A stretch of DNA of 64,000 nucleotides. Origin: an uncultured virus (IMG/VR IMGVR_UViG_3300033148_004664) (Duplodnaviria > Heunggongvirae > Uroviricota > Caudoviricetes). This document shows positions 2,295-44,398 of this stretch, piece by piece. Every line of letters starts with the position of its first letter. The stretch's first letter is position 1. The notes below the pieces were generated by a model. The model was not told where the DNA came from. It saw nothing but the letters and a program-made list of their open reading frames with translations, and did no database searches. Position numbers and translations under genes: made by a program. The DNA is taken from IMG/VR virus record IMGVR_UViG_3300033148_004664; one strand, given 5' to 3'.

Positions 2295-2302
2295 TTTCAT
2301 AA

Positions 2303-3697: not shown

Positions 3698-3709
3698 GAG
3701 AGGTATAAA

Positions 3710-5008: not shown

Positions 5009-5027
5009 TAAGGGGAGTTTTTGTAAA

Positions 5028-7035: not shown

Positions 7036-8505
7036 ATGTTACATATTAGTAGACGAGAAGAGGATTTTGATTCTTTACGAGAGAAGAAACGAGTGAACAA
7101 GGATTTTTGGACACAGGTTAGATCTGCTTGTTCGAAAGGTGATATAGATCTTCTTAAATTTCTTATGAGATCAACTGATATTTATGTATTTCCTGATGAA
7201 GATACTAATATCTGTTTATACTTGGCCATAAAAGGCAACCATCCTGATATGGTTGAATTCCTACTTTCGCCTTATAATTCTAAATACAAAATTCCTTCTC
7301 ATCTCGTCATGTATAGTTTCAAAACTAAAAATCCAGAAATAGTAAAACATGTCATAGACAGATTAAAGGAAGAAGGTACATTATTGAAACATGCAGGAAT
7401 GCTTTACGAGTTGGCGGATTACTTGTTTGAATACGATACTGACAATCCAGATGTAAGAAAGATATATCTATTAGTCCGTGATATGTGGGATGACGCAGAA
7501 GATCCCAAAGCTGTTTGGGATGAAAGCCTTCGTGAACAAGTATTGTCAACAAAAGGTTTTTTGGGGAGAGATAGTTTTTCTGTAGATCCAATATCTATGT
7601 TAAAGAGTGCATTTGAAATAGATTGGCCGGAACCGACACTTAATTATTGGAAGAATTTTTCTTCTTCATCGGCTATATTTGAAGAAGGAAAAGTAGATGA
7701 TTTCATAGAAATGTTTACTAAACGTTATGGACCCGAAAAGACAGTCGAATTATTGCGATCGTATCTTCCTCAATCAAAACTCACTCTTTTTGCTTCAAGA
7801 ATAATGGAAGCACCTGGATTTTTTGAAAAGGATTATTTGATTGTTATAGAAGGCATTATGTCGGTTCAGCATCAATTAAAACATTTCTTGAACTATTTAT
7901 TAGAAGGCGCGACTGTATATGAAAATCTTGATTGTGTCAATTATTTTTACAAGACAGTAAAGAAATACAACGATGATATAGATTTCAGCGTAAGAGATAG
8001 TTTGTATATTAACGTCTTCACATTTCCATCCGATGTAGTGTTAAAAGGATTAATTATTTTGTATAGCGCAAAGATTGAACCTCCGTATAATTTGTATAAT
8101 CTTATTGCCGATAATATAGAAGATGAAAAAGAAGCGACTAAAATATATGCTCATTTAATGATTAGATACAACATGTATCCTGCTACTGCTGACGATGCGG
8201 TTGAAGTATTAATAATGTTTTATTATAACAATATTGAATATATGTTGGAACCGTTGATAAAACATATTGAGGAACGTGATTGGGAATCCGCAGTATTATA
8301 TAGGTTGATTCATGCGGGAGCAAATTCAATAGCATATAAATTAATAAACAATTACTGGACGGATTTAAACTTTACGTTTGAGTTTTTAGAAGAAGCGTAT
8401 GAATACGGCGACAGAGCATTGGTGGATTTAATACTTAGTCGTATGGATAAAGATGAAGTCGAACGAGCAAAGAAACTTATTTTTGACCGTGATGAAGAGG
8501 AGTAA
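7036..8505 (+). CDS. Ankyrin-repeat protein with LHISRREE leader
   Basis: SACSKGDIDLLKFL, LYLAIKGNHPDMVEFLL and EEAYEYGDRALVDLIL are ankyrin-like. Confidence 0.75.
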   Translation: MLHISRREEDFDSLREKKRVNKDFWTQVRSACSKGDIDLLKFLMRSTDIYVFPDEDTNICLYLAIKGNHPDMVEFLLSPYNSKYKIPSHLVMYSFKTKNPEIVKHVIDRLKEEGTLLKHAGMLYELADYLFEYDTDNPDVRKIYLLVRDMWDDAEDPKAVWDESLREQVLSTKGFLGRDSFSVDPISMLKSAFEIDWPEPTLNYWKNFSSSSAIFEEGKVDDFIEMFTKRYGPEKTVELLRSYLPQSKLTLFASRIMEAPGFFEKDYLIVIEGIMSVQHQLKHFLNYLLEGATVYENLDCVNYFYKTVKKYNDDIDFSVRDSLYINVFTFPSDVVLKGLIILYSAKIEPPYNLYNLIADNIEDEKEATKIYAHLMIRYNMYPATADDAVEVLIMFYYNNIEYMLEPLIKHIEERDWESAVLYRLIHAGANSIAYKLINNYWTDLNFTFEFLEEAYEYGDRALVDLILSRMDKDEVERAKKLIFDRDEEE

Positions 8506-8594: not shown

Positions 8595-9533
8595 ATGAGA
8601 AAATTAAATATGAAAAAAATAGCTTTGAAACCTGAATGGAGAGAACTTCCCGGAATGGATGAAATATTAGATGCGTATGATGACAGCGATTTGAATTTAT
8701 TAAAGGATTTAATTGAATCAAGTGAAAACAGGAAAGAAATATTGGAATTCGTATATTTGAATGCAGTCAAGGACGGTTGGGTAGATTGCGTTCGTTATTG
8801 TTTGTCGGCTGGAGTAGACCCTGCTGCACATTGGGGAGACGCATTGGTTTTATCAGCACGAAACGGTCATGTAGATGTATTCAAACTTATTAATGACACT
8901 GTCGATGTATATAATACATTCAATAATTATCAAGTACGAATGGCTATTATTTATGCTGCAATGTATAGCCCGGAAATAATAGATGTAATGATAAAGGATT
9001 ATCCTGATGTCTATAATGAGAATATACCAGGTATTATTGAATATCTTATTGATAGAGGCGATTACGGTCCGGCTACTTATCTTTACGAGAAGGCTAAAAG
9101 GAACGGTATTGATATTAATGAGGAAATAGAAGAAGCAATACAAAACATGGATTATCCACAAAAGCGTCAGTATGAAAGATCTTCCGGTTACGATGATAGA
9201 TTTTTAGGCGGCGGAGGAGGTTATGGAAAACCGATGTATTTACTTGAAGACTGGACGTTTCCGGGAAAGGAAGAGGCGAATGATATGTTGATTACCGGTG
9301 CGATGCGGGGAGAGATGTCTACAGTTACTCAAGCATTAAACAGAGGGGCGGATATTCATATCGGACAAGACGCACCTCTGTTTGCGGCAGTATATAATTG
9401 TCATCCTGAAATAGTTGAATTATTATTGGAACGCGGAGCCGATCCGTTCGCACGTAATGGAATGATATTAAGAATATCTAAAATCCACGGTTGCCCTGAA
9501 GCGGCGGAAATACTCGATAGGTATTCTCATTAA
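8595..9533 (+). CDS. Ankyrin repeat protein
   Basis: Canonical repeats: ALVLSARNGHVDVFKLI, ALNRGADIH, APLFAAVYNCHPEIVELLLERGADP. Confidence 0.9.
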   Translation: MRKLNMKKIALKPEWRELPGMDEILDAYDDSDLNLLKDLIESSENRKEILEFVYLNAVKDGWVDCVRYCLSAGVDPAAHWGDALVLSARNGHVDVFKLINDTVDVYNTFNNYQVRMAIIYAAMYSPEIIDVMIKDYPDVYNENIPGIIEYLIDRGDYGPATYLYEKAKRNGIDINEEIEEAIQNMDYPQKRQYERSSGYDDRFLGGGGGYGKPMYLLEDWTFPGKEEANDMLITGAMRGEMSTVTQALNRGADIHIGQDAPLFAAVYNCHPEIVELLLERGADPFARNGMILRISKIHGCPEAAEILDRYSH

Positions 9534-11855: not shown

Positions 11856-12737
11856 ATGAAAATTGGTCTCTATAATATTGATAGCAAAATACCTAATATA
11901 GCATTAATGAAAATATCAATGTATCATAAAGCCCAAGGAGATACAGTGAATTGGTGTCTTCCGCTTGAATTTGGGATGTATGACAAAATATATGCCTCTT
12001 CAATATTTACATATTCAAACAAAGAATATGTAATTGACAATATGGTTTGCGGAGGCACTGGCTTTGATGTTAAATTGGCATTACCGCAAGAAATAGATGA
12101 TTGTGATCAGGATTATTCTCTATACCCAGATTTCAAATACGCAATTGGTTTTCTCACCCGGGGATGCATTCGTAAATGCCCTTGGTGTATTGTCCCCGAA
12201 AAAGAGGGGTATATAAGACCATATCGCAATATTGAGCAGGTAGCACAAGGACGCAAAGAGGTCATACTTCTTGATAATAATGTTCTTGCCCATCCTCATG
12301 GACTGAAACAAATAGAACGTATCGTCGAACTTGGTTTGAAGGTGGATTTTAATCAGGGACTGGACGCAAGGTTGATTGATGATGAGATAGCAAAATTGTT
12401 GTCAAAAGTCAAATGGTTAAGACCGATACGGATGGCATGTGATGATGAAAGCATGATTCGACCCGTTGTCAAGGCGACGGAGTTTTTGAGAAAACATAAT
12501 TGTACACCTTCGGTTTATTCCGTTTATGTGCTCGTCAAGGATATTCCGTCTGCACTTAAGAGAGTGGAGGAATTAAGAAAACACAATCTTGACCCTTTTG
12601 CGCAACCGTTCAGAGATAGAGATGGTAATGAACCACCCAAGAAATTAAAGGAATTTGCGAGATGGGTGAATCACAAAGCGATATTCAAATCAATTTCATG
12701 GGATGAATATAGTGCGAGCAAGAAAATCGTATATTAA
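11856..12737 (+). CDS. Radical SAM protein (phage type)
   Basis: TRGCIRKCPWC (CxxxCxxC); PNIALMKIS N-terminus; LDNN and DFNQGLDAR. Confidence 0.85.
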   Translation: MKIGLYNIDSKIPNIALMKISMYHKAQGDTVNWCLPLEFGMYDKIYASSIFTYSNKEYVIDNMVCGGTGFDVKLALPQEIDDCDQDYSLYPDFKYAIGFLTRGCIRKCPWCIVPEKEGYIRPYRNIEQVAQGRKEVILLDNNVLAHPHGLKQIERIVELGLKVDFNQGLDARLIDDEIAKLLSKVKWLRPIRMACDDESMIRPVVKATEFLRKHNCTPSVYSVYVLVKDIPSALKRVEELRKHNLDPFAQPFRDRDGNEPPKKLKEFARWVNHKAIFKSISWDEYSASKKIVY

Positions 12738-12748
12738 TGAGGAAATAA

Positions 12749-13456
12749 ATGCTTGAAACAAATAAAATATATTGTGGTGATTGTCTTGAATTGATGAAGG
12801 AATTACCTGATGAGAGTATAGATTTTATACTTACAGACCCGCCATTTAATGTATCATTAAAATATAATTCTTATAATGATCACATGAGTGATGAAGATTA
12901 TTCGAACTATCTACTCAAAAGGTTTGTAGAACTTTTTAGAGTTATGAAAGATGGAACGTACGGAATAATATTCACTGGAGATAAAAACCTTTATTGGGTG
13001 CACAAGGCTGTTAATGAATCTGGACTTAATTATCATCATTTTTTGAAGTGGCATAAACCTAATTGCCATAGAGCATTACCTGGAACAGTGTTGTTTGGTA
13101 CTACAGAATTAGCATTTGTGGTAAGTAAAAATAAGCCGAATATTTCAAAAATAAAACGAAAAATTATGTATAGTGACACTCTTACGTATATTAATTGTAC
13201 GCCACCAGCTTCATATGAAAAAGACAAAGTTTTTCATCCGGCAGAAAGACCTGTAGGTTTATATAATCAAATAATATTAGGTTTCACTGATGAAAATGAT
13301 GTTGTTTTGGATCCTTTTCTTAGTTCAGGTACGACTGCTGTATCTTGTATTAAAACTAATCGTAAATTTATAGGTATGGAAATAGACAAACACTACTACG
13401 AAATGGCACAAAAAAGGATAGATGCTGAGTTATCACAGTTGAAACTTGATTTGTAA
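12749..13456 (+). CDS. N6A/N4C DNA methyltransferase, beta class
   Basis: DPPF motif IV precedes DPFLSSGTT motif I (Gly replaced by Ser); ends QLKLDL. Confidence 0.9.
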   Translation: MLETNKIYCGDCLELMKELPDESIDFILTDPPFNVSLKYNSYNDHMSDEDYSNYLLKRFVELFRVMKDGTYGIIFTGDKNLYWVHKAVNESGLNYHHFLKWHKPNCHRALPGTVLFGTTELAFVVSKNKPNISKIKRKIMYSDTLTYINCTPPASYEKDKVFHPAERPVGLYNQIILGFTDENDVVLDPFLSSGTTAVSCIKTNRKFIGMEIDKHYYEMAQKRIDAELSQLKLDL

Positions 13457-13468
13457 AGGGAATTTGTC

Positions 13469-13822
13469 ATGAGTCTTTGTAGATGGAGTAGCATGAATTG
13501 GAAATGTGACTTATATTGTTATTATGATTGCTACGGAGGCATAACAATTCATGTCGCAGCCCGTAAGCATGTTGGAGATATACCTGAATTGCCGAATGTT
13601 CTTGATGTTTCGAGTGAGGAATGGCTTGAGGCATGTAGAAAACAAGCAAAAGCTCTTGAGGAATCGGAGTTGGTAGAGATTGGATTACCTGCAGACGGCG
13701 AGACCTTCCAATGTCCGGATATTGAATCTTTTCATAATAAGTTGAAAGAGCTAAAAGAAATGGGGTATAGGTTTCCTGAAGATTTATTCGAAATAGATGA
13801 AGAACCGGAAGGCGTTGAATAG
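13469..13822 (+). CDS. Hypothetical protein
   Basis: 117 aa ORF with RBS; decayed paralog at 11673. Confidence 0.7.
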   Translation: MSLCRWSSMNWKCDLYCYYDCYGGITIHVAARKHVGDIPELPNVLDVSSEEWLEACRKQAKALEESELVEIGLPADGETFQCPDIESFHNKLKELKEMGYRFPEDLFEIDEEPEGVE

Positions 13823-13897
13823 ATGGATGACATGTTACAATCTTTCGGTAAATACTCACAATTACCAAGGAAATGCAATATGTCATAGTGAGGGAAC

Positions 13898-14605
13898 ATG
13901 ACTGGTGGTAGTTTATTTAGTGGTATTGAAGGGATTGGTCTCGGCTTATTATGGTCGGGACTAATAGACAAAATAGTTTGGCAGGTGGAAATAGATGAGT
14001 ACTGTAACAAAGTTCTTGAAAGACACTTCCCCAACACAAAGCGATTCAAAGACATCCGAGATTGCGGAAAACATAATCTTGAACCAGTTGACGTTATTTT
14101 CGGAGGATTTCCTTGTCAACCTTTCAGTGTTGCCGGGAAGCGAAAAGGCGAAAAAGATGACCGTTATCTCTGGCCAGAAATGGTTCGGATTATTGAAGAA
14201 CTCAAACCTATTATCGTCATTGGTGAAAATGTTCCTGGAATCATCAAGATGGGTCTCGACGAAGCGTTATCTAATTTGGAGAGTCTTGGCTACTCCACGA
14301 CAGCGATTGGTATTCCTGCTATCGCCGTCAACGCTTGGCATGTTAGGCAAAGAATATGGATTATTGCCTACTCCGACAACAAGAGGATTAGATGGAGGAC
14401 AAAGAGCACGGGATATGATAAACCAGAATATACAACTATTCTCGATTTCAATGGATTACGACAATCCAGAGTTCGTCGAATGTCTAATGGGATTCCCCAT
14501 CGGATGGACAGACTTAGATGCGTAGGAAATGCTGTTGTCCCACAAGTAGCTCAAGTAATAGGTGAAATAATAAAAGATTGGTTGAATATTGAGAATGAAT
14601 ATTAA
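13898..14605 (+). CDS. C5-cytosine DNA methyltransferase, alpha polypeptide
   Basis: LFSGIEG (I), GFPCQ (IV), ENV (VI), HVRQRIW (VIII), GNAV (X); no motif IX in this frame. Confidence 0.9.
   Translation: MTGGSLFSGIEGIGLGLLWSGLIDKIVWQVEIDEYCNKVLERHFPNTKRFKDIRDCGKHNLEPVDVIFGGFPCQPFSVAGKRKGEKDDRYLWPEMVRIIEELKPIIVIGENVPGIIKMGLDEALSNLESLGYSTTAIGIPAIAVNAWHVRQRIWIIAYSDNKRIRWRTKSTGYDKPEYTTILDFNGLRQSRVRRMSNGIPHRMDRLRCVGNAVVPQVAQVIGEIIKDWLNIENEY
13995..14525 (+). CDS. Nested alternate-frame beta polypeptide of the C5 methyltransferase
   Basis: +1-frame ORF ending NPEFVECLMGFPIGWTD (motif IX); exact start uncertain. Confidence 0.8.
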   Translation: MSTVTKFLKDTSPTQSDSKTSEIAENIILNQLTLFSEDFLVNLSVLPGSEKAKKMTVISGQKWFGLLKNSNLLSSLVKMFLESSRWVSTKRYLIWRVLATPRQRLVFLLSPSTLGMLGKEYGLLPTPTTRGLDGGQRARDMINQNIQLFSISMDYDNPEFVECLMGFPIGWTDLDA

Positions 14606-14686
14606 TATATCAACATCAATTTTATAATTGAAATACACAAAATACATATATATATATTATGTAGTGTAAGTAATTTTATCAAGTGT

Positions 14687-14759
14687 AGATAGTAGGGGGG
14701 ATATTATTTATGAATCATTAATTTTTTAGCGGATCGATACTCTATCTCCCCTACTATTT
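14687..14759 (+). ncRNA. Candidate stem-enclosed small RNA or regulatory hairpin
   Basis: 17-bp stem (AGATAGTAGGGGGGATA / TATCTCCCCTACTATTT, two G-U) around a 39-nt loop in intergenic DNA. Confidence 0.45.
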
Positions 14760-14799
14760 CAGATGTAGAATAAATGGTTTTTTAATTATAGGGTGTGTA

Positions 14800-15009
14800 A
14801 TGAAAATATGTAAGTATTGTAAACATTGGAAAAGACGAGAAAACACTTGTTACGGATATTGTGATATTACTATCAAGATTGGGGGTAAAGTGATTTTAAA
14901 AGGCAGCATTGGGTTGACTAATGAGTATTTTCATTGTGCAAGGTTTGAACCGAGGGAGAATAGTAAACATGAACAAAGAGCAATTAGAAACAGTTTTAAA
15001 CGCATATAG
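14800..15009 (+). CDS. Small CxxCxxW Cys-rich protein
   Basis: KICKYCKHW...GYC...FHCARFEP. Confidence 0.7.
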   Translation: MKICKYCKHWKRRENTCYGYCDITIKIGGKVILKGSIGLTNEYFHCARFEPRENSKHEQRAIRNSFKRI

Positions 15010-15154
15010 GAAATTCTGTATTCAACATGATGTTATCTTGTCAACATACGGTTGTGAAGATATAAGTATTGAACCCTTGAATAAGGAGTATTCTGAACTT
15101 GATAGACATATAGCAGAAATACGGGATAACACATGGTTTAGACTTTTTAAATGA
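14969..15154 (+). CDS. Hypothetical protein
   Basis: ATG after GGGAG; fills the gap before the methyltransferase. Confidence 0.55.
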   Translation: MNKEQLETVLNAYRKFCIQHDVILSTYGCEDISIEPLNKEYSELDRHIAEIRDNTWFRLFK

Positions 15155-15169
15155 GGTATATATAACACA

Positions 15170-16255
15170 ATGGAATGTGTAGGCGGATGCGAAATTGACA
15201 AGTATGCAATTGCAGTATCGAAATATCATTACCCGAAACATAGGAATTATGGAGATGCAAGAACAATTGACCCTTCCGATTTACCAAACTTCGACTTGCT
15301 CTGTGCGGGGTTTCCTTGCCCGAGCTTCTCAATTTCAGGAAAGCGACTGGGATTCAATGACCCACGAGGTGCATTATTTTTTGAAATCAAACGGATTCTT
15401 GAGCACAAAAGACCCCGATATTTTCTACTCGAAAATGTTACAGGCTTATTTAGTTCTCAAGACGGAAAAGTGTTCACGAGAATACTTGAAATTCTCGCCG
15501 ACGCTGGGTATCGAGTTCAATGGCAGGTACTTGATAGCCAGGAGTTCGGAGTTCCACAACACCGGGAAAGAGTGTTCATTGTCGGACATATTAGAGGAGA
15601 ACCCCGACCGGAGGTATTTCCTATCGGAGAAAGCGAAACAGTCTCTCATGAAATGGGCACAAAAAGGGAAAAACGCGTCTGTAATACAATTACAAGAAAA
15701 ACCGGACACCCGCACATAACGCTATTAGCTTGGCATAATAAGACAAGCGGGGTCGTCCCGAAAGATGTCTCACCTACACTACGAGCGTCGGGCGGAACGG
15801 ACATAAGAAAAATACCGTATGTTGTACACTCCAACCCGCGTAGATATAGTAGTGATGGATTACGTCAGGTTGGATATTTTGGTAAAAACGGAATGGCGGA
15901 ACGTGTCTATGATGTTGGTGGGGTAGCAACTACACTTCGGAGTAATGGGGGCGGGTTAGGAGCGAAAACCGGATTATATGAAATTGAAGATTCAATACGC
16001 CGGCTTACGCCGCTTGAGTGCGAGCGGTTACAGGCGTTCCCCGATAACTGGACAAAGTATGGAATATTTAATGATAGGAAAGTGCAAGAAATATCAGATA
16101 CACAGCGTTATAAACTTCTCGGCAATGCTGTTACAACGACGGTTGTTTCCGAGATAATAAAACGAATGCCTGATAACATTGAAACCTACTTTGATATGTT
16201 TTACGGGATCAAGGGATTTACTTATGGGATAGAGCTTGCACAAGAGAATTTATAA
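15170..16255 (+). CDS. Circularly permuted C5-cytosine DNA methyltransferase
   Basis: Starts at motif II (GCEIDKYA); GFPC, ENV, QHRER, RRLTPLECERLQAFPD, GNAV; motif-I-like YFDMFYGIKGF at the C-terminus. Confidence 0.85.
   Translation: MECVGGCEIDKYAIAVSKYHYPKHRNYGDARTIDPSDLPNFDLLCAGFPCPSFSISGKRLGFNDPRGALFFEIKRILEHKRPRYFLLENVTGLFSSQDGKVFTRILEILADAGYRVQWQVLDSQEFGVPQHRERVFIVGHIRGEPRPEVFPIGESETVSHEMGTKREKRVCNTITRKTGHPHITLLAWHNKTSGVVPKDVSPTLRASGGTDIRKIPYVVHSNPRRYSSDGLRQVGYFGKNGMAERVYDVGGVATTLRSNGGGLGAKTGLYEIEDSIRRLTPLECERLQAFPDNWTKYGIFNDRKVQEISDTQRYKLLGNAVTTTVVSEIIKRMPDNIETYFDMFYGIKGFTYGIELAQENL
15195..15719 (+). CDS. Nested alternate-frame polypeptide within the C5 methyltransferase
   Basis: +1-frame ORF with CSLSDILEENPDRRYFLSEKA and EQLTLPI. 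Confidence 0.65.
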   Translation: MTSMQLQYRNIITRNIGIMEMQEQLTLPIYQTSTCSVRGFLARASQFQESDWDSMTHEVHYFLKSNGFLSTKDPDIFYSKMLQAYLVLKTEKCSREYLKFSPTLGIEFNGRYLIARSSEFHNTGKECSLSDILEENPDRRYFLSEKAKQSLMKWAQKGKNASVIQLQEKPDTRT

Positions 16256-16259
16256 AGAT

Positions 16260-16294
16260 TTGCCGTTAGTCTTGTAATATGGAACTAACGGCAA
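16260..16294. terminator. Intergenic hairpin
   Basis: TTGCCGTTAGT...ACTAACGGCAA, a perfect 11-bp inverted repeat after the methyltransferase stop; no U-tract. Confidence 0.45.
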
Positions 16295-16323
16295 GATGAT
16301 ATAAGTTTGGAGAAAGAAACCAC

Positions 16324-16914
16324 ATGGGGGATTTTATAATAGTTGATACTCACCCGCAATTAATATCTTATGTAGATTTGTTACAGAAGAAGAATGCAGA
16401 AGCACTTTCTTTTTATCCTAAATGTGTATTTGAGCGGGAAGCAGAAAAACATAGGATATTACTTGGATTGTTGAATAATGAACCGTGTGGTTATCTTTAC
16501 ATGGGAGCACCTGCGATTGATATGAAATGCCATCAAGTATGTATTCAATATGATGTAAGGCGTAGATTATATGGTGCTATGCTTGTTGCTAAGATGGAAG
16601 AAATTGCAAATAGATATGGAGCATCTACTATTACATTACGTTGTGGATTTGATTTAGAGGCAAATAAATTTTGGAAAGAGCTTGGTTATTCTTGTATTGA
16701 TATACAAACTGGAGGCATTAGACGCAACAGAAAGATAAATATATGGAGAAAGTATTTGAATCCAAATCTATTTGAAAATTTTGCAATTGAACCTGCGGTT
16801 GGTAAGATAGATTCTTCTATATGGAAAAAACATAAACAAGTAGGATTAATAAGTCCATATAGCAGAGGAAAGAAGTTGCGTATTTATCGTGAAATTGTAA
16901 CAGAGAAATTTTAA
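16324..16914 (+). CDS. GNAT-family acetyltransferase
   Basis: RRRLYGAML acetyl-CoA loop; EANKFWKELGY motif B. Confidence 0.8.
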   Translation: MGDFIIVDTHPQLISYVDLLQKKNAEALSFYPKCVFEREAEKHRILLGLLNNEPCGYLYMGAPAIDMKCHQVCIQYDVRRRLYGAMLVAKMEEIANRYGASTITLRCGFDLEANKFWKELGYSCIDIQTGGIRRNRKINIWRKYLNPNLFENFAIEPAVGKIDSSIWKKHKQVGLISPYSRGKKLRIYREIVTEKF

Positions 16915-16977
16915 TAATATGATACCAACGGTAAAATGGTATAATTTACTGCAACAAAGTTCAGGGGAACATTAACG

Positions 16978-17163
16978 ATGAGTGATGAAATGAAGCGGGA
17001 ACGATGTATACTGCTTAATTGTTCTAAATGTGGGCGGTTTGTAGGTAAAAATGGATTCCATGACATTTCCTACGACGATTATATGGGGGGATGGGAAGTT
17101 GGCTATCCATTATGTGAACGGTGTTTACAAGAGAAACGACAAAAAGAGAAAAGCAAATTATAA
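16978..17163 (+). CDS. Small Zn-finger protein
   Basis: CSKCGRF...CERC; similar to 38687 (CSTCGRF...CKNC). Confidence 0.65.
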   Translation: MSDEMKRERCILLNCSKCGRFVGKNGFHDISYDDYMGGWEVGYPLCERCLQEKRQKEKSKL

Positions 17164-17247
17164 ATAATCTTGGATGGTATTGAGATAAATGCAAATATCG
17201 TGTAGAGTTTAAACCAATGGACAATATAGTTCAGAGGAACATTAACG

Positions 17248-17451
17248 ATGAGCGACGAACGGTATTGTGGTAATTGCAGATATTGGGAGGAAATAAATCA
17301 TAGTGATGAAAATCTGCAAAAGCAGGACAATAGTAAAGAACATTCACGAGTAGGTAAATGTTATCGGCATGTTTCTCGTGAAATTTCAGTGTTTTACACA
17401 AATTCTGATTTTTGCTGTATTGATTTTGAACCGATAGATGTTATCGAATAA
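17248..17451 (+). CDS. Small CxxCxxW Cys-rich protein
   Basis: YCGNCRYW...GKC...FCCIDFEP. Confidence 0.7.
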   Translation: MSDERYCGNCRYWEEINHSDENLQKQDNSKEHSRVGKCYRHVSREISVFYTNSDFCCIDFEPIDVIE

Positions 17452-17518
17452 CGGAGGACGATCGGTTTGTGAGAGTAATATTAAAGGTCGTCTTGTGGTA
17501 AACAAGGGAGGTAAAATC

Positions 17519-17914
17519 ATGACACAGGAAAAAGTAACTTGTGCGATTTGTGGTAATCCTATTGACGAGGAGAATAAAAGTCTTTCTTATGTTATATGCA
17601 AGGATTGTCATTCTATTTTCTTTCAGAAACAGCGGACAATAAATATTGATGGACATACAACATTGAAAGTTACTTTTAATGGAACCAGTTGGGAGGTAAC
17701 CGGAGCATATAATTATAAGAGTAAAACATCGGTTCCATTATCTTTTTTCGAAGACAAAACATTACCAGAAGCGTTAGTGTTCTTACAGGAACTACATCAA
17801 GCATGGAGAGTAGTATGTTATAATTGTGGAAGATTGATTGATCGTAATGGCATAAGCGTTCATACTTATGATGGGAAAGCATATTGTTGGGAATGTAAGG
17901 AGGTGGCAAAATGA
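17519..17914 (+). CDS. Double Zn-finger protein (paralog of 25281)
   Basis: CAICG...CKDC and CYNCG...CWEC; ATG after GGGAGG. Confidence 0.7.
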   Translation: MTQEKVTCAICGNPIDEENKSLSYVICKDCHSIFFQKQRTINIDGHTTLKVTFNGTSWEVTGAYNYKSKTSVPLSFFEDKTLPEALVFLQELHQAWRVVCYNCGRLIDRNGISVHTYDGKAYCWECKEVAK

Positions 17915-17960
17915 CAGAGAGTATGCTCAGTGATATTTTAAGTACGATATTTGCAATTGT

Positions 17961-18224
17961 TTGGCTCGGTTTCATGGCGTTTATATTCTCACGGCGTTAA
18001 GAGGAAGGAAATACGGAATGGCTATTATACATAATAAAACAGATTATTTAGAAAATTGGATAGAGGAACACGGGAAGCATATCCCTACAAATGAACGGGA
18101 AGAAATAGTTAAGCGTATAAAAAGATTGAACGATTTATTCGAGCGTGCCCATGCAAACGTTACACCAGAGACATTGTTGCGTAATATTGGATGGGGGAAT
18201 GTGGATATTTGGGGGGCGAAATAG
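17961..18224 (+). CDS. Hypothetical protein
   Basis: ORF track; likely real start at the downstream MAIIH. Confidence 0.5.
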   Translation: MARFHGVYILTALRGRKYGMAIIHNKTDYLENWIEEHGKHIPTNEREEIVKRIKRLNDLFERAHANVTPETLLRNIGWGNVDIWGAK

Positions 18225-18239
18225 TAAGGAGTAATATAA

Positions 18240-18449
18240 ATGCTGATTGTAAATAAGTATGAAATACCAGATAGCTGTCCCAAAGATTGCCCGCTGTCAT
18301 GGGTTTATTGCAAAGAGTGTCCACTTTTCGTTCGTTCGGATTTTATTTATAAGAAGATCCCGGAGAAACATCGAGAAGATTGGGCGAAAGCGTGGAGTGA
18401 ATGGTTCAAGAGCGGGTATAAAACCCCGCCTGAACTTTTTTACTTTTAA
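18240..18449 (+). CDS. Cys-rich protein (paralog of 38417)
   Basis: Shares NKYE.P..CP.DCP...REDWAK.W.EWFKSGYKT. Confidence 0.75.
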   Translation: MLIVNKYEIPDSCPKDCPLSWVYCKECPLFVRSDFIYKKIPEKHREDWAKAWSEWFKSGYKTPPELFYF

Positions 18450-18453
18450 CAAG

Positions 18454-18534
18454 GGGGGCGGAAAGGCTTCGACGGGGGAGGGCAATCGCCAATCCCTTTC
18501 TCGGATACCGGTTCGATTCCGGTCGCCTCCACCA
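18454..18534 (+). ncRNA. ssrA: Minimal tmRNA: tRNA-like domain only
   Basis: GGGGGCG/CGCCTCC acceptor stem with G3-U70 and ACCA; stemless D-loop GAAAGGCTTCGA; 10-bp helix 2a with an 11-nt loop; T-arm ACCGG-TTCGATT-CCGGT. Confidence 0.85.
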
Positions 18535-18628
18535 AAGTCGCCAAAATAAAGGGGGTGTTGCCGATGAAACATTGATTGAATCTGAATTGTGTCTTGTCTA
18601 CCGAAAATATTTAACAAGGAGGATTACT

Positions 18629-18799
18629 ATGGAATCGTACAATGTATGGGAAAATCCTTATTTTCGAGATGCTTATCTTGATGCTCATCTTCGAGAAAGG
18701 GCTATCCAACTTATTTATGACACCTTCGGACAAACTGTTACGGAGGAAATACTCAAGAAGCATTTCAATATGATCATGGGGTTGATAAGAGGGAGATAG
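18629..18799 (+). CDS. Hypothetical protein
   Basis: ATG after AGGAGG (MESYNVWEN...). Confidence 0.6.
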   Translation: MESYNVWENPYFRDAYLDAHLRERAIQLIYDTFGQTVTEEILKKHFNMIMGLIRGR

Positions 18800-18856
18800 T
18801 GGTTTTCTTACATGAGTTTTTATAACTCTTTTAAAGATAGCATCTTCGGGTCATAA

Positions 18857-18940
18857 AAGTTTGGCGGGGCAAAAGTCAATTAGTGTGGAAGAAAGGCTAA
18901 TTATGAAGCCCTACGGGTTTTATAAAGCCCCGCCAAATTT
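18857..18940 (+). ncRNA. Candidate three-way-junction small RNA
   Basis: 14-bp closing stem AAGTTTGGCGGGGC/GCCCCGCCAAATTT enclosing two hairpins. Confidence 0.5.
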
Positions 18941-19139
18941 ACTAAATGTTGGATGTTTGTCTTATGAATGATTTAGAGAGAGAATACAGAATGCGATATT
19001 ACAAAATGTTAGACAAAATCCATAAGGATCGTAGCCCGTCTTTCGATTGTGATTACAAAAGCGGGGAAGGTAAAGATTGGGCAAAGAAGTTTTTGGATAT
19101 AATTAGAAAAGAGTTAATGTCTTAATGCTGATAAAAATA

Positions 19140-19168
19140 TTGTTTCCAAAATTTTTGTTGCGTATATT
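19140..19168 (+). promoter_or_regulatory. Sigma70-like promoter upstream of the methyltransferase cassette
   Basis: TTGTTT-N17-TATATT. Confidence 0.6.
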
Positions 19169-19216
19169 ATAGTAGCGTGGGTATTAATAATTACTACCCA
19201 AAATAGGGAGGTTACA

Positions 19217-19369
19217 ATGTTTACAGTGATTGGTCATTGTCCGAAATGCGGGGCACCGATTTATGCGCCGACTTCTTGGAGTGGCACGACTCCGCCGTCT
19301 ACATATTATTCGTGTACTTGTCGCGGTAGTTCAACTGTTTTTGTTACAAGTACCAATTCTTCTGGTTAA
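19217..19369 (+). CDS. Small Zn-ribbon protein (not in ORF track)
   Basis: GGGAGG RBS; MFTVIGHCPKCGAPIY...CTC, 50 aa. Confidence 0.65.
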   Translation: MFTVIGHCPKCGAPIYAPTSWSGTTPPSTYYSCTCRGSSTVFVTSTNSSG

Positions 19370-19403
19370 TACATAACATCTCTTGTATAAGAAGGAATGA
19401 AAT

Positions 19404-20006
19404 ATGCTTGAAACAAATAAAATATATCACGGCGATTGTATTGACTTGATGAAGGAATTGTCTGATAAAAGTGTGGATTTTGCATTTGCTGATCCGCCTT
19501 ATGGGATAAACAAAGCACATTGGGATTTATCGTATATAAGCATTGAAAAAGAATTGTTAAGAATATCTCGCAAAGGAATAGCTGTAACTCCAGGGCAAGA
19601 AAATATAGCAAAATGTATTACTGCAATGGGGGATGAATATAAAGGGATTGTATCAGCATGGAACATAAACGGCATGACATTTAGCAAAATAGGGTTTGAG
19701 AATTGGATACCTGTTGTAATGGGTGGAAAAATTAAGCGCGGACAAAACTGCTTTCGTTTTGTTGTGAAGAATGTTAAACCTAACCATCCTTCCCCCAAAC
19801 CTCTTGAGTTCATGAAGGAATTAATATTACGTTTCACTGATGAAAATGATTTAGTTCTTGATCCTTTTCTTGGTTCAGGTACGACTGCAGTAGCTTGTAT
19901 TAAAACTAATCGTAAATTTATAGGTATAGAGATAGACAAACATTATTATGAAATAGCACAAAAAAGAATAGATGCTGAGTTATCACAGTTGAAACTTAAT
20001 TTGTAA
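19404..20006 (+). CDS. N6A/N4C DNA methyltransferase, beta class (cassette 1)
   Basis: DPPY, HPSPKP, DPFLGSGTT; ends QLKLNL. Confidence 0.92.
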   Translation: MLETNKIYHGDCIDLMKELSDKSVDFAFADPPYGINKAHWDLSYISIEKELLRISRKGIAVTPGQENIAKCITAMGDEYKGIVSAWNINGMTFSKIGFENWIPVVMGGKIKRGQNCFRFVVKNVKPNHPSPKPLEFMKELILRFTDENDLVLDPFLGSGTTAVACIKTNRKFIGIEIDKHYYEIAQKRIDAELSQLKLNL

Positions 20007-20024
20007 AAATAGGATGTTAAAATT

Positions 20025-20747
20025 ATGCTTGAACCAAATAAGATATATCACGGCGATTGTTTTGAATTAATGAAGGAACTACCCGATGAAAGTGTGGATT
20101 TTATACTTACTGATCCGCCTTATGGTATTAGTTTCTTATCAACACGGACAAATAATTATGATAAATTGGAAAACGATGATTTAGACGATTGGTTAGAACA
20201 AATTCCTAAATGGTTAAGTGAATTTAGACGTATATTAACTCCTACAGGTGTGTGTTGTTGTTTTTTAGGTGGTGGGGGTAAAATGGCGACTACTGCTCTT
20301 TTTACTATTGAAGCAATAAAACATCTCAAGTTAATTCAAACTTTAGTTTGGAAAAAGTTTATAGGATTGGGGTGGCGATATAGACCGGCGTATGAAAATA
20401 TTATAGTGTTATCTAAATCAGAAGACAACTATAATTTTTATGATACAAGCAAAAAATGTTCTAATGTTATAGAAGGGATTAATCAAAAAATCCCAAAATC
20501 TAATCCTATAAACAACTATTATGAACACCCCACACAAAAACCAGTTGAATTAATGATTCATTTATTGAATATACATTCAAAAGAAGGTGATTTAGTTCTT
20601 GATCCTTTTCTTGGTTCAGGAACAACTGCTATAGCTTGTATTAAAACTAATCGTAAATTTATAGGTATGGAAATAAATAAACATTATTATGAAATGGCAC
20701 AAAAAAGAATAGATGCTGAATTATCACAATTGAAACTTAATTTGTAA
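20025..20747 (+). CDS. N6A/N4C DNA methyltransferase, beta class (cassette 2)
   Basis: DPPY, HPTQKP, DPFLGSGTT; ends QLKLNL. Confidence 0.92.
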   Translation: MLEPNKIYHGDCFELMKELPDESVDFILTDPPYGISFLSTRTNNYDKLENDDLDDWLEQIPKWLSEFRRILTPTGVCCCFLGGGGKMATTALFTIEAIKHLKLIQTLVWKKFIGLGWRYRPAYENIIVLSKSEDNYNFYDTSKKCSNVIEGINQKIPKSNPINNYYEHPTQKPVELMIHLLNIHSKEGDLVLDPFLGSGTTAIACIKTNRKFIGMEINKHYYEMAQKRIDAELSQLKLNL

Positions 20748-20765
20748 AAATAGGATGTTAAAATT

Positions 20766-21407
20766 ATGCTTGAAACAAATAAGATATATCATGGTGATTG
20801 TTTTGAATTAATGAAGGAATTACCTGATAAGAGCGTGGACTTGGTACTTACTGATCCGCCTTATGGGATAAATGTGGTTAATACTACGATAGGAGGTAGT
20901 AATATAGCTAAAGCTAATAAATATAAACCGATAATAAACGATGATATTAAACTTGATCTTTCTGAATTATTCCGAATATCGAAAAATCAAATTATTTTCG
21001 GGGGAAATTATTTTAATTTGCCAATATCGAAAGGATGGATTGTATGGGATAAAAAACTTCGGAATAATTGGAATGATAATTTTTCTGATGGTGAATTGGT
21101 CTGGACATCTTTTAATAAACCTTTAAGAATATATCGCAAATTATATATGGGATGTATGCAAAGTGGAAAGAGAGAAATAAGAATTCACCCAACACAAAAG
21201 CCCATTGAATTGATCAGATGGATTATAGAAAATTATTCAAAACCAACCGATTTAGTTCTTGATCCTTTTCTTGGTTCAGGTACGACCGCTGTAGCTTGTA
21301 TTAAAACTAATCGTAAATTTATAGGTATAGAGATAGACAAACATTATTATGAAATAGCACAAAAAAGAATAGATGCTGAATTATCACAATTGAAACTTAA
21401 TTTGTAA
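20766..21407 (+). CDS. N6A/N4C DNA methyltransferase, beta class (cassette 3)
   Basis: DPPY, HPTQKP, DPFLGSGTT; ends QLKLNL. Confidence 0.92.
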   Translation: MLETNKIYHGDCFELMKELPDKSVDLVLTDPPYGINVVNTTIGGSNIAKANKYKPIINDDIKLDLSELFRISKNQIIFGGNYFNLPISKGWIVWDKKLRNNWNDNFSDGELVWTSFNKPLRIYRKLYMGCMQSGKREIRIHPTQKPIELIRWIIENYSKPTDLVLDPFLGSGTTAVACIKTNRKFIGIEIDKHYYEIAQKRIDAELSQLKLNL

Positions 21408-21431
21408 AAATTGAAATTAAGGAATCAAACT

Positions 21432-22562
21432 ATGTTTGAATTGAATAAAGTACATAATATTGATGTACTGGACGGGTTAAAACAGTTGCCCGATGAAAGT
21501 ATTGACTGTGTTGTTACAAGCCCTCCTTACTGGGGATTGAGGGATTATGGGGAAGAAACAAAGTATATATGGGGAGGGGATAAAAACTGTTCTCATGAAT
21601 GGGGAGATGAGAACATAAATTCATTGAGGTTACAAGCAGGCAATCCTGAATTTCGTCGTCCGTGGCGGGAACAAGCATCTAATGAGACGATTTCTAATGG
21701 TGCATTTTGTTCTAAATGTGGTGCATGGTATGGTAGCTTAGGTCTTGAACCGACAATGCAACTCTATATCGAACATTTGAGAATGGTGTTTGCGGAAGTC
21801 AAGCGGGTGTTGAAGAAAATAGGTACATGTTGGGTTAATATCGGGGACACGTATGCAAGTGGTGGCGGTAATGCGGCAGAACAATCATTTTTGAGAAATA
21901 AAGGAAAAGATAGGCATACACAACCAGATAGCCCGGGTAAGGCAAAACTACGAAGTAAAATGGGTAAATCTCTTTGCAATATCCCGGAACGCTTCTCAAT
22001 CATGATGACGGACGAGTTGGGATGGATCAAGCGTAATACGATTATTTGGTACAAGCGGAATGCGATGCCAGCGAGCGTAAAGGATAGGTTCACAGTGGAT
22101 TTTGAATATTTTTATTTTTTCACGAAAAGTAAAAAGTATTACTTTGAGCAGCAATTTGAGGATTACGCACCAGGATCTGAAGTAGAATATCGACGGAAGT
22201 TGAGGGCGGGGAAGAAATACAACACGAAAGCACCGTGGAAGAATAATATTCCGTTCGCGGGAAAGTATAGACCAACTAATACTAAAGGACGTAACAGGCG
22301 TTGCGTGTGGGATATCCCTACTAAACCCTTTCCAGGTGCTCATTTTGCCGTCTTTCCTCTTGAACTTGTAGAGACGCCGATACTTGCTGGTTGTCCCGAA
22401 GGCGGAATTGTACTTGATCCGTTTGCGGGTAGTGGCACAACGGTACTAAAAGCATTACAGTTGAATAGGAATGCAATTGGTTTCGAGCTTAATCCTGAGT
22501 ATTGTGATTTAAGAAAAGATGAAATAGAGGCGACGAAAGCACAATTGAAATTAAGTATTTGA
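21432..22562 (+). CDS. N4C/N6A DNA methyltransferase with insertions
   Basis: TSPPYW, HFAVFP, DPFAGSGT; Cys-containing insert; ends QLKLSI. Confidence 0.9.
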   Translation: MFELNKVHNIDVLDGLKQLPDESIDCVVTSPPYWGLRDYGEETKYIWGGDKNCSHEWGDENINSLRLQAGNPEFRRPWREQASNETISNGAFCSKCGAWYGSLGLEPTMQLYIEHLRMVFAEVKRVLKKIGTCWVNIGDTYASGGGNAAEQSFLRNKGKDRHTQPDSPGKAKLRSKMGKSLCNIPERFSIMMTDELGWIKRNTIIWYKRNAMPASVKDRFTVDFEYFYFFTKSKKYYFEQQFEDYAPGSEVEYRRKLRAGKKYNTKAPWKNNIPFAGKYRPTNTKGRNRRCVWDIPTKPFPGAHFAVFPLELVETPILAGCPEGGIVLDPFAGSGTTVLKALQLNRNAIGFELNPEYCDLRKDEIEATKAQLKLSI

Positions 22563-25929: not shown

Positions 25930-26718
25930 ATGGATAAGATCAGATTATTTAAGGTTCTTCAAGAAGATCTCGTGAGTCCATTCCAGGAATTTTGTTACAA
26001 CATAGGTACTACCTACGAGTGTCACAATTTTGATCCGGATCCATATAAAGATTGTTCCTGTGGGTTTTATGCTACGGATATTGACGGGTTACCGTATGCA
26101 TATAATACCCGTTATAAGGTATTTGAAGTGGAGGTTTGGGGAAGAAGAGTAGAATTCAATAAATTCAAAAGAAGATATGAATATATCAAGATTCTACGTA
26201 AGATGCCTTCTAATGAATTATTTGCCCTTGCAGAAAGTGCAGAAAGCAAGGAGAAATATAGATTGTCAGAGGTATTATTTCCTGTTATTCCATCTTACAT
26301 TAAAGTTACTGAATTGACCGATGAACACAAGAAACTTTTACATCTCTGTACTCAGTTGAAGATTAATATTTATGCTTATGTAAGAGAGAAGGTTATAAAC
26401 AATTACGGTAAAGAAACATGGGAAGCGGTTTTTAATTCCGTTTCGGATTCTGTTGGGAATTTTGCCAGAGTTTCTAATCTAAACAACATTTATAGTAGTG
26501 GTATTTCTATATTGGCATATATTGGTCTGTTGTTTAATAATCATCCTGAGTCGTATGAGTTTCAACCTTTTGTTGATTTGTGGTATCAAGGAATTTTAGT
26601 TGATTATAAATATATTACAGTACGTGAAAGAGATTTATTTAAAAATAAACTTCGTTGGACTCTATTTGACGCAAGGACTTCAAAAGAACTTTATTCAGAA
26701 ATAGTTGATGTCAAGTAA
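25930..26718 (+). CDS. Hypothetical protein (paralog of 29200)
   Basis: CS.GFYATDIDGLPY...FQP.VDLWYQG shared with 29200. Confidence 0.75.
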   Translation: MDKIRLFKVLQEDLVSPFQEFCYNIGTTYECHNFDPDPYKDCSCGFYATDIDGLPYAYNTRYKVFEVEVWGRRVEFNKFKRRYEYIKILRKMPSNELFALAESAESKEKYRLSEVLFPVIPSYIKVTELTDEHKKLLHLCTQLKINIYAYVREKVINNYGKETWEAVFNSVSDSVGNFARVSNLNNIYSSGISILAYIGLLFNNHPESYEFQPFVDLWYQGILVDYKYITVRERDLFKNKLRWTLFDARTSKELYSEIVDVK

Positions 26719-29199: not shown

Positions 29200-30024
29200 A
29201 TGGAACGGAAAAGACTATACAAAGTACTAACGAAAGATATGATAAGTCCCATTCAAAGTTTTAAGTATGAATTAGGGAAAGAATACAAATGCAAAGATTT
29301 TGACAGTAATCCTAATATTGATTGTTCCCGTGGGTTTTATGCTACGGATATTGATGGGTTACCTTATTCATTTGATATTCATCGGAAAGTATTTGAAGTT
29401 GAGGTTTGGGGTAAAGCGGTAGAACTTAATCAATTCAAGCAACGATATGAGTATATTAAACTCATTCGAGAAGTTCCGCATGAGGAAGTAAAAAAACTTG
29501 CTCGTGAATGGGAACCTCGTGTTGGGTATAAATTATCAGAATTATTATTTCCGGTAAATCCATTTGAAATTACCCCACCTGAAATTATGGAGAAACACAA
29601 GGAATTATTGAATGATTGGATTTTAGTCAAGGATTTCGTTGAGGATTCGGTTGAGGCTTCAGTCGGAGATTTGAATTGGGGGCCGATTTGGTTTTCAGTT
29701 GGCGATTTAACCAGGGATTTGATTTGGGATACGATCAGTGATTTAAACAAAGATTCTTTCAATGTTTTGCCTTGGGGTTTGTCTCAGATCTCAGTTCGGA
29801 ATTCGGTTTGGGATTCGGTTGCGGATTCAATCTGGGCTTATGTAGGTTCGTTATTTCCTGAAGTCAAAAAATGGAAATATATTTCTCATGAATCCGATAA
29901 ATACCCATTTCAACCTGCTGTTGATCTTTGGTATCAAGGATTAGTACCTTCTTTTGATGGCAAAGTATGGAGATTACATGGTGGAGAAAACGGTGAAGTA
30001 CTATATACTCATGATGTAAATTAG
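29200..30024 (+). CDS. Hypothetical protein with W/D/S/V-rich repeats (paralog of 25930)
   Basis: SVRNSVWDSVADSIWAY repeats; shared N-terminal domain. Confidence 0.75.
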   Translation: MERKRLYKVLTKDMISPIQSFKYELGKEYKCKDFDSNPNIDCSRGFYATDIDGLPYSFDIHRKVFEVEVWGKAVELNQFKQRYEYIKLIREVPHEEVKKLAREWEPRVGYKLSELLFPVNPFEITPPEIMEKHKELLNDWILVKDFVEDSVEASVGDLNWGPIWFSVGDLTRDLIWDTISDLNKDSFNVLPWGLSQISVRNSVWDSVADSIWAYVGSLFPEVKKWKYISHESDKYPFQPAVDLWYQGLVPSFDGKVWRLHGGENGEVLYTHDVN

Positions 30025-34640: not shown

Positions 34641-35021
34641 ATGGCACAGACTGAATTGCGATTAAGGTTACTCAAGAATGGAAGAATTGTGGGGTATGAA
34701 ATGAAGAAACAAGGTGTGACATTGTTTGCCGATGATAGGCGACCCCACAGTTTTATTGACCACGATTCATTTGAAATCGGGATCAAAATACATGACAAGT
34801 GGGTGTTTGAGGGAGATATAATAGAGAGACCCTATCCTAATGAAGATTGCTTACCTTATCGGTTTGAAATAAAACGAAACGAATCCGGCGCATTGTACTA
34901 TGTAGCCCCTAATGCCGCAAAGGGGGATACCCTTGGTACGCATTGGGAATATTTGAGTGAACGTATGCCGGAGTTTAAGGTAATCGGCAATATTCATGAA
35001 CGGGAGACGGAAAATGAATGA
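34641..35021 (+). CDS. YopX-like protein
   Basis: LRLLKNGRIVGYE...WVFEGDII...VIGNIHE. Confidence 0.75.
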   Translation: MAQTELRLRLLKNGRIVGYEMKKQGVTLFADDRRPHSFIDHDSFEIGIKIHDKWVFEGDIIERPYPNEDCLPYRFEIKRNESGALYYVAPNAAKGDTLGTHWEYLSERMPEFKVIGNIHERETENE

Positions 35022-44229: not shown

Positions 44230-44306
44230 CGGGGTGTAGCGCAACACGGCAGCGCACTCGTTTTGGGGGCGAGTGGTTGTTGGTTCAAATCCAACCGCCC
44301 CGACCA
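44230..44306 (+). tRNA. tRNA-Pro(TGG)
   Basis: Cloverleaf; anticodon loop TTTGGGG, TTCAAAT T-loop, encoded CCA. Confidence 0.92.
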
Positions 44307-44321
44307 TAATTTACCATTAGT

Positions 44322-44398
44322 GGGTCCGTAGCTCAGTTTGGTAGAGCACCAGCCTTTTAAGCTGAGGGTCAAAGGTTCAAATCCTTTCGGACTCACCA
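44322..44398 (+). tRNA. tRNA-Lys(TTT)
   Basis: Cloverleaf; anticodon loop CTTTTAA, encoded CCA. Confidence 0.93.

Follow-up and report, generated by a model that had tools for sequence, protein, structure and literature searches.

A phage tmRNA gene that retains only the tRNA-like domain, and the class of mini-tmRNAs to which it belongs

We identified a gene for a transfer-messenger RNA (tmRNA) reduced to its tRNA-like domain (TLD) in DNA from an uncultured virus (IMG/VR record IMGVR_UViG_3300033148_004664). The whole stretch of DNA that was analysed, 64 kb in length, is called the window here, and the gene occupies 81 nucleotides (nt) of its plus strand, from position 18454 to position 18534, with both tmRNA termini present and paired in a direct reading. 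It is a genuine phage gene, and RNAs of the same design, which we call mini-tmRNAs, form a class that is widespread in phages and probably interferes with the rescue-and-tag system of the host; a function of this kind is plausible, judging from its sequence, for the copy in the window. Trans-translation is the main route of ribosome rescue in bacteria and a target of antibiotics.

Structure and identity of the element

The original prediction, made from the letters of the window, had described a tmRNA cut down to its TLD with neither a tag reading frame nor pseudoknots. Every structural feature that it named is present in a direct reading, and the description agrees both with the Rfam tmRNA model RF00023 and with a covariance model of the class (R1, described below). 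When the window was compared with Rfam, RF00023 matched exactly positions 18454-18534 of the plus strand with 64.4 bits, against a gathering score of 47 (E 8.1e-23 for the 64-kb window). The alignment spans model positions 1-374, with 10 nt standing in for 303 internal positions, and the features that define the TLD in this model, namely the acceptor stem, A73-CCA, the D-loop motifs, helix 2a, and the T-arm, are all found in the element. RF00023 is the only family reported at the gathering threshold; clan competition in Rfam keeps the best match only, and any score for mitochondrial tmRNA is thus hidden.

The structure consists of an acceptor stem, a stemless D-loop, a long helix 2a closed by a short loop, and a T-arm. 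The 5' strand of the acceptor stem, GGGGGCG (18454-18460), forms seven of seven possible pairs with the 3' strand CGCCUCC (18524-18530), in which a U stands opposite G3 (G3·U70), and the stem is followed by the discriminator A and an encoded CCA (ACCA, 18531-18534). The D-loop of 12 nt, GAAAGGCUUCGA (18461-18472), carries the conserved GG and UUCGA(C) motifs and aligns to GGaUUCGAC in the consensus of tmRNA. The UUCGAC and GGA motifs, which are specific to SmpB and tmRNA, are retained both in the RF00023 alignment and in the comparison with the family. Helix 2a is formed by CGGGGGAGGG (18473-18482) and CCCUUUCUCG (18494-18503), which make ten of ten standard or wobble pairs, the 3' strand being placed by the direct reading and by the R1 alignment. 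It is capped by an 11-nt loop, CAAUCGCCAAU (18483-18493), which stands in place of the whole mRNA-like domain and the pseudoknots in the direct reading and the RF00023 alignment alike. The linker GAU (18504-18506) leads into the T-arm ACCGG-UUCGAUU-CCGGU (18507-18523), with five of five pairs and a 7-nt loop. All 22 stem pairs of the element (7 + 10 + 5) are standard or wobble pairs. All of these features lie on the plus strand.

The mRNA-like domain, with its resume codon, tag frame, and in-frame stop, is not present in the element, as judged from the RF00023 alignment and a scan for stops. None of the triplets TAA, TAG, and TGA occurs in any frame of the 81 nt, and hence there is no tag frame that could be terminated. 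Pseudoknots PK1-PK4 and the upper part of helix 2 are likewise absent, the 11-nt loop closing helix 2a directly. The fold of minimum free energy (MFE) slips helix 2a to another register along runs of G and pyrimidine; covariation in the family supports the register given above, which is that of the original prediction. The first seven pairs of helix 2a are modelled in R1, and all of them pair in the alignment of the window element.

Three other identities were considered for this site and rejected. A canonical tRNA would have a D-stem and an anticodon arm, neither of which is present; at 18454-18534 ARAGORN predicts no tRNA and no tmRNA, and Rfam clan competition keeps tmRNA at the site. A two-piece (permuted) tmRNA is at odds with the standard order of the parts and the closed helix 2a. 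Finally, an open reading frame (ORF) that runs through the element (18259-18549) has no Shine-Dalgarno site and overlaps a better ORF (18240-18449) in another frame.

A class of phage mini-tmRNAs

The original prediction had treated the element as if it were unique, which it is not: the same design is found in a large class, and one RNA of this kind, from Mycobacterium phage DS6A, is already in print. Using a pattern of conserved tmRNA motifs that allowed 17-47 nt between the start of helix 2a and the T-arm, we found 35 loci in viral contigs, at least 120 loci in metagenome contigs, and four loci in a collection of genomes from 185,579 species, all four on contigs of metagenome-assembled genomes (MAGs). 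One of these four (L037) is a tRNA-Ala that matched at its 5' end by chance, and it was removed from every count for the family. Common as it is in viral and metagenome contigs, the design is rare in the species genomes (3 MAG contigs).

The matches listed give 101 distinct sequences besides that of the window (102 with it), and the following counts refer to these. Lengths range from 72 to 86 nt with a mode of 80-83, after a correction of the 5' end in one large group, where the true G1 lies one base upstream and gives a perfect acceptor stem. The T-stem is complete (five of five pairs) in all 102 sequences, and its commonest loop, UUCGAUU, which is also that of the window element, occurs in 52. 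The D-loop measures 12 nt in 52 members, including the window element, and 13 nt in the other 50. The linker is GAC in 81 cases, GAA in 13, GAG in 5, GAU in 2, and GUC in 1, the window element having GAU. Helix 2a closes after 6-10 base pairs and is among the longest in the window element, since ten pairs are seen in 5 of the 102. Most members keep an inner motif or hairpin, (U)AAAnCC...GG, that the window loop CAAUCGCCAAU lacks. Three other members (L021, L054, and L135) are likewise without (U)AAAnCC, and we treat this motif, on the evidence of the sequences, as a probable trait of lineages rather than as a defining feature of the class.

Support for the shared structure comes from an alignment (A4) of 50 of the 101 non-window sequences, those with a 12-nt D-loop, with one (L129) left out; sequences with a 13-nt D-loop were set aside because MAFFT misplaced their extra D-loop base. 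With the window element excluded, 96.2% of pair cells in A4 are standard. Shuffling the columns lowers this figure to 70.3%, with none of 500 shuffles reaching the observed value, and sliding the partners lowers it to 45-54%. Changes on both sides are seen at 11 of 19 pairs. RNAalifold, run on 26 sequences, recovered helix 2a and the T-stem independently, with 8 of 16 pairs compensated.

The covariance model R1 was built from the 50 members of A4, again without the window element. It matches the window element over its full length (model positions 1-80 of 80) with 69.6 bits (E about 7e-14), and the published TLD-only element of DS6A (JN698994.1, 28478-28560), also over its full length, with 58.4 bits. 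Two members from outside the training set score 82.0 (L036) and 64.5 bits (L039). The two tRNAs of the window, tRNA-Pro and tRNA-Lys, reach 26.6 and 20.9 bits, and the full-length tmRNA of Bacillus phage G reaches 22.1 bits, through its 3' part only. In its full-length fit to R1, its size, and its being encoded by a phage, the window element is a structural member of the same class as the DS6A element. None of this is visible to ARAGORN, which called no mini-tmRNA in the 31 loci that hold one and were submitted to it.

A G3·U70 pair is the identity element recognized by alanyl-tRNA synthetase (AlaRS). The first patterns forced a 5' GGGG and a 3' UCCACCA, and the presence of G3·U70 in the sets that they returned is uninformative. 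A second scan left the acceptor stem unconstrained, its sole anchors being motifs of the D-loop, helix 2a, and the T-loop, and it matched at least 120 viral contigs; in parsing these, D-loops of 8-18 nt were allowed, and a single locus truncated at the end of its contig was left out. In the 85 distinct sequences among the matches listed, the acceptor stem is complete (seven of seven pairs), G3·U70 is present, and position 73 is A, each without exception. The neighbouring pair 4-69 varies freely (G-C in 59, C-G in 13, A-U in 6, U-A in 2, and G-U in 1 of the 81 sequences listed in the first parse). Since the identity set stays constant while pair 4-69 changes, the sequences point to selection across the class for alanylation, and hence for delivery by EF-Tu. 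CCA is encoded in only 29 of the 85, yet a C follows the discriminator A in 79 of the 85 listed, and this conserved C74 is unexplained.

We found no obligatory phage-encoded partner for these RNAs, in that families of neighbouring proteins are common to at most 3 of the 40 element lineages (2049 flanking ORFs from 158 loci). Several members lie in or beside phage tRNA arrays (L001, L008, L014, L023, and L011). In L001 the element stands 2 nt before a run of 17 tRNAs, and in L036 it is flanked by R1 matches of the strength given by tRNAs. One locus (L024) holds a tRNA-like 3' end, with a T-arm and ...CACCA, in the 30 nt abutting its mini-tmRNA (3081-3110, locus + strand); ARAGORN calls no gene there, and it may be another atypical tRNA-like gene. 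In a marine lineage (for example L002, L005, L007, L019, and L020) the motif TGTCAA(C/G)-N-ACTAAATG lies within the 30 nt before the element and runs into G1, possibly as a phage promoter or a processing signal.

Close relatives of the window copy itself were sought in several ways. Its exact 56-nt core has no match in the viral contigs. When the 81 nt were compared by blastn with 50,697 phage records, 63 records matched, none of them over 80% or more of the query; the best matches cover at most 47% and fall in tRNAs or in the T-arm and acceptor 3' halves. When 3 kb around the element was used as the query, only a piece of a methyltransferase matched, in 14 records. Two other lineages, searched by blastn against the same 50,697 records, gave no record in one case and two records with partial matches in the other, with no full-length copy; cultured examples are rare.

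The genes nearby were used in the same way. A flanking ORF of 158 amino acids has no relative in the viral contigs, and a GNAT-like ORF (16324-16914) has eight, at 64-67% identity. All that the loci of these eight share with the window is the GNAT-like gene and methyltransferases of a generic kind, and neither R1 nor Rfam detects a tmRNA in them. Two of the GNAT-sharing contigs without a mini-tmRNA (L172 and L173) carry a 58-nt element (2157-2214, +) made of an acceptor stem and T-arm only, a tRNA 'minihelix' without G3·U70 that scores 20.1 bits with R1. Among the sequencing runs listed for an 8-kb stretch, none is of RNA, and four DNA runs contain small shares of it (0.07-0.12), their short contigs covering parts of the stretch, with no listed piece spanning the element; coverage is nil in the bin 18505-18771 and of some depth in the bin 18238-18504, where the sole listed piece ends at 18439, and these figures permit no inference on habitat or expression.

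Genomic setting in the window

ORFs on the plus strand cover 91% of the window, and the G+C content varies from 0.31 to 0.44. The presence of proteins of the head maturation protease family (44848-45846), the major head protein family (48646-49611), and the tail sheath family (61168-62682) identifies the window as phage DNA. Its capsid protein has its nearest counterpart in the 497-kb Bacillus phage G, with 41.4% identity over 83%, and the next-closest capsid proteins belong to other phages of roughly 200-500 kb. The only ARAGORN calls in the window are a tRNA-Pro(UGG) at 44230-44306 and a tRNA-Lys(UUU) at 44322-44398, both with encoded CCA, which directly precede the head-protease and capsid module.

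The element lies between two ORFs on the same strand. Upstream is an ORF for a Cys-rich protein of 69 amino acids (18240-18449, +) with a good Shine-Dalgarno site, the stop codon of which falls 4 nt before the RNA gene. Downstream, an ORF of 56 amino acids with a Shine-Dalgarno site (18629-18799, +) begins 94 nt after it. Neither belongs to a Pfam or PHROG family. Co-transcription with these neighbours, followed by processing of the tRNA type, would be the simplest reading of this arrangement. No match to the SmpB, Pth, ArfB, or integrase families was found among the window ORFs scanned; for integrase this covers the scanned ORFs by family match, and one could be encoded by an ORF without any match. 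That SmpB, Pth, and ArfB families are missing from this set fits an RNA acting on host factors.

The region around the element, from 11 to 43 kb, is a same-strand block with many genes for anti-restriction and host takeover. It contains at least nine DNA methyltransferases, a radical SAM protein, a GNAT-like acetyltransferase, Lar, an RNA ligase, and MazG. Genes for DNA modification and anti-restriction are unusually dense in the window (11856-22562, 34996-35418, 41752-42606, and, on the minus strand, 57750-58655), and seven of the at least nine methyltransferase ORFs lie within 12.7-22.6 kb. The radical SAM protein is encoded at 11856-12737, and a Lar restriction-alleviation protein is also encoded in the window. 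The RNA ligase (PF09414, 32427-33098, E 5e-19), which lies 14 kb from the element, suggests repair by the phage of RNAs cut by host nucleases, and the MazG pyrophosphohydrolase is found at 42603-43070.

Farther from the element, there are two ankyrin-repeat proteins (7036-8505 and 8595-9533; Ank_2, E 1e-9 and 5e-13) and two pairs of paralogous ORFs, one at 3710-5008 and 5028-6317 with 28% identity over about 430 amino acids, the other at 25930-26718 and 29200-30024 with 41.5% identity (DUF7666). The four large ORFs at 888-6317 matched neither a Pfam nor a PHROG family.

Known relatives and possible functions

Mao et al. 2009 is reportedly the source for the TLD-only tmRNA of DS6A. An entry 'Mycobacterium phage DS6A (TLD only)' appears in the list of Hudson, Lau and Williams 2014 (PMC4131195). 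A TLD-only molecule like that of DS6A strongly inhibits the endogenous tmRNA in Escherichia coli, perhaps by titrating SmpB, according to PMC4131195 and PMC11915505. DS6A is a 60-kb temperate mycobacteriophage (tmRNA Website tmID 11587), whereas the window derives from a large phage resembling phage G. Both elements are phage-encoded and of similar size (83 nt in DS6A and 81 nt in the window), with G3·U70, a stemless D-loop, helix 2a with a short loop, a T-arm, no tag frame, and a full-length match to R1. Beyond the conserved tmRNA motifs, however, their sequences are unrelated, and the DS6A element ends in ACUA with no encoded CCA, whereas the window element encodes CCA. A DS6A-type molecule has been assayed in E. 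coli, according to the two papers cited above. Apart from DS6A, the literature searched describes no phage family of such RNAs. Published knowledge of the kind comes from this single phage, and the class is much larger than the literature shows.

Against the canonical tmRNA (SsrA, RF00023), the window element agrees in every defining element of the TLD and lacks about 300 nt, comprising the resume codon, tag ORF, stop, PK1-PK4, and the upper part of helix 2. It shares with tRNA-Ala the pairs G1-C72 and G2-C71, G3·U70, A73-CCA, and the T-arm, but is without a D-stem and anticodon arm. The tmRNA of Bacillus phage G (gp553) is a full-length, tag-encoding RNA of 312 nt in a tRNA cluster; it is not syntenic with the window element, and its TLD is dissimilar. 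According to the literature it is found by ARAGORN, which makes no call on the mini form, and ARAGORN was the tool for tmRNA detection in published surveys of huge phages, phage G, and marine phages (PMC7162821, PMC12484599, and PMC9004378). As this program is blind to the mini form, such surveys would have missed mini-tmRNAs.

Two further kinds of RNA consist of a TLD alone. The organellar kind replaces the cell's own tmRNA, whereas the phage RNA comes in addition to an intact host tmRNA, which would make it a competitor and not a replacement. Jakobid mitochondrial tmRNAs without an mRNA-like region were reportedly described by Jacob et al. 2004. PMC11915505, in the section concerned, places tmRNAs without a coding sequence (CDS) in jakobid mitochondria and two plastids (the plastid forms being of roughly 65 bp), and these, which like the window element consist of the TLD alone, are thought to work with SmpB. 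The engineered kind (Gutmann et al. 2003; Bessho et al. 2007), made for co-crystals with SmpB and for assays in vitro, has the same list of parts, on a comparison by description only, and binds SmpB according to citations in PMC4131195 and PMC11090510; unlike the natural phage element, these constructs are laboratory truncations of bacterial tmRNAs.

On balance, and with some reserve, we favour an explanation in which the window element yields an RNA that is alanylated, binds SmpB, and suppresses ssrA tagging by competing with host tmRNA. The RNA would be transcribed with its same-strand neighbours and excised by host tRNA-processing enzymes. Host AlaRS would charge it with alanine by way of G3·U70 and A73, and host SmpB and EF-Tu would bind it as they bind the TLD of a real tmRNA, so that it would compete with host tmRNA both for SmpB and for stalled ribosomes with an empty A site. 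Without a resume codon, tag frame, or stop, the ssrA degradation tag would not be added, and the net effect would be a dominant-negative block of trans-translation tagging during infection. We infer the expression, charging, and SmpB binding of the RNA, and its effect on the host, from its sequence. Alanylation with a role as SmpB decoy or tag-free rescuer had been put forward in the original prediction and is reasonable by analogy for this element, the decoy idea because of the DS6A precedent.

Several observations weigh against this explanation. The stability of the MFE fold is unexceptional (-35.9 kcal/mol, z = -1.57, with 14 of 200 shuffles folding as well). Between 16 and 20 kb there are 15 promoter-like sites where chance predicts 15.1, and a search of the same interval for terminators yielded none. 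The element is a sequence singleton, the nearest class member agreeing at 62 of 81 positions among the matches listed, and searches of viral contigs with the flanking ORFs found no syntenic relative of the locus. Many phages with full-length tmRNAs, phage G among them, seem to want trans-translation and not a block of it. Lastly, inhibition by the TLD-only molecule in E. coli was independent of chargeability, in the parts of PMC4131195 and PMC11915505 that treat it. If chargeability is dispensable for inhibition, as this second-hand report has it, the strict conservation of G3·U70 is unexplained by a pure SmpB sponge and points to entry into the ribosome. The contrast between that report and the presence of G3·U70 in all 85 of the sequences listed suggests that the natural phage RNAs do more than sponge SmpB.

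The main rival, which we regard as unlikely, is built on this last point. In this alternative the charged mini-tmRNA, together with SmpB, would enter stalled ribosomes, accept the nascent chain, and add one alanine, and the complex would be resolved by drop-off and peptidyl-tRNA hydrolase, by release of the ArfB type, or by further rounds. Ribosomes would be recycled for phage translation and the products left unmarked for proteolysis of the ClpXP type, which amounts to rescue and not inhibition. The constancy of G3·U70 and A73 in the sequences listed speaks for it, since charging and delivery by EF-Tu are apparently selected, as do the tight clustering of lengths around 80-83 nt, the position of several members amid tRNA arrays that support translation (L001, L008, L014, L023, and L036), and the hint of RNA-cleaving stress given by the RNA ligase of the window. 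Moreover, where jakobid mitochondria and some plastids have a CDS-less tmRNA together with SmpB, PMC11915505 interprets that RNA as still assisting with incomplete mRNAs. On the other hand, an RNA with no stop codon or frame needs a second factor for release, and the Pth, ArfB, and SmpB families were neither found among the window ORFs scanned nor shared across lineages. The sole experimental report, as given in parts of PMC4131195 and PMC11915505, is of inhibition and not of rescue.

A decoy or cofactor directed against RNA-targeting defence or RNA decay is quite improbable. The TLD would, by analogy, occupy SmpB-like sensors, RNase R, or nucleases of tRNA and tmRNA. RNase R is recruited by tmRNA-SmpB. 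In the parts of the papers that bear on this, CoCoNuT type IV restriction systems have SmpB-like domains predicted to bind tmRNA (PMC11090510), and the anti-CRISPR (Acr) protein AcrIIIA1 works with tmRNA and tRNA fragments of roughly 90 nt and RNase R (PMC11662646). The element does lie amid anti-restriction genes, with at least nine methyltransferases, Lar, and the RNA ligase 14 kb away, but in other phages such elements stand in tRNA arrays and not in anti-defence islands, and no defence-related or Acr-like partner is common across the lineages. The case is one of analogy only, and a passive decoy would not need an invariant G3·U70 and A73.

Less probable again is that the element is an inert remnant, left functionless here by a recent internal deletion in a full-length phage tmRNA gene. 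As a singleton without a close relative and without a predicted promoter or terminator of its own, it has some of the marks of one, and phage G, a distant relative by its capsid protein (41.4% identity), has a full-length tmRNA of 312 nt. All 22 stem pairs and the conserved loops are intact, however, with CCA encoded, and the R1 score of 69.6 bits is as high as those of bona fide members. The reduced design is seen again and again, in 40 lineages and with compensatory changes, which means that the design itself is selected, whatever its origin. Given that its tmRNA is neither syntenic nor similar in its TLD, phage G neither supports nor refutes a private deletion in the window phage.

Least likely by far is a tRNA-like processing signal (RNase P/Z punctuation) or an ssrA-derived attP site, to which the position of the element 4 nt past a stop codon between same-strand ORFs, and the reported frequency of ssrA as a site of phage integration, might point: attP sites hold the 3' part of the gene only, whereas here both termini are present and paired, as the original prediction had argued in dismissing an att-site remnant; no integrase family was found among the scanned ORFs; and a processing signal has no need of the tmRNA-specific D-loop and helix-2a motifs or of the alanine set.

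Returning to the favoured reading, a phage RNA that hijacks or blocks trans-translation would be a ready-made probe of recognition by SmpB, AlaRS, and EF-Tu, and it would bear on the question of how phage proteins escape ssrA tagging while host and phage nucleases cut mRNAs. To DS6A the window adds a clean example with an encoded CCA, in the midst of anti-restriction genes, from a phage that resembles phage G and is very different from DS6A. The invariance of the alanine set among the sequences listed makes the choice between a sponge and ribosome entry a sharp, testable question. There is some chance, a small one in our estimate, that mini-tmRNAs are more than SmpB sponges, namely charged, ribosome-entering RNAs that take over stalled ribosomes with host SmpB and EF-Tu and extend the C terminus by alanine without a template, once or several times, before a release factor acts. 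If so, they would provide a tag-free route of rescue that persists when host tmRNA or mRNAs are cut by RNA-targeting defences, since the RNA has no exposed mRNA-like region, and they would represent a widespread, so far unstudied phage strategy, overlooked because surveys based on ARAGORN miss it.

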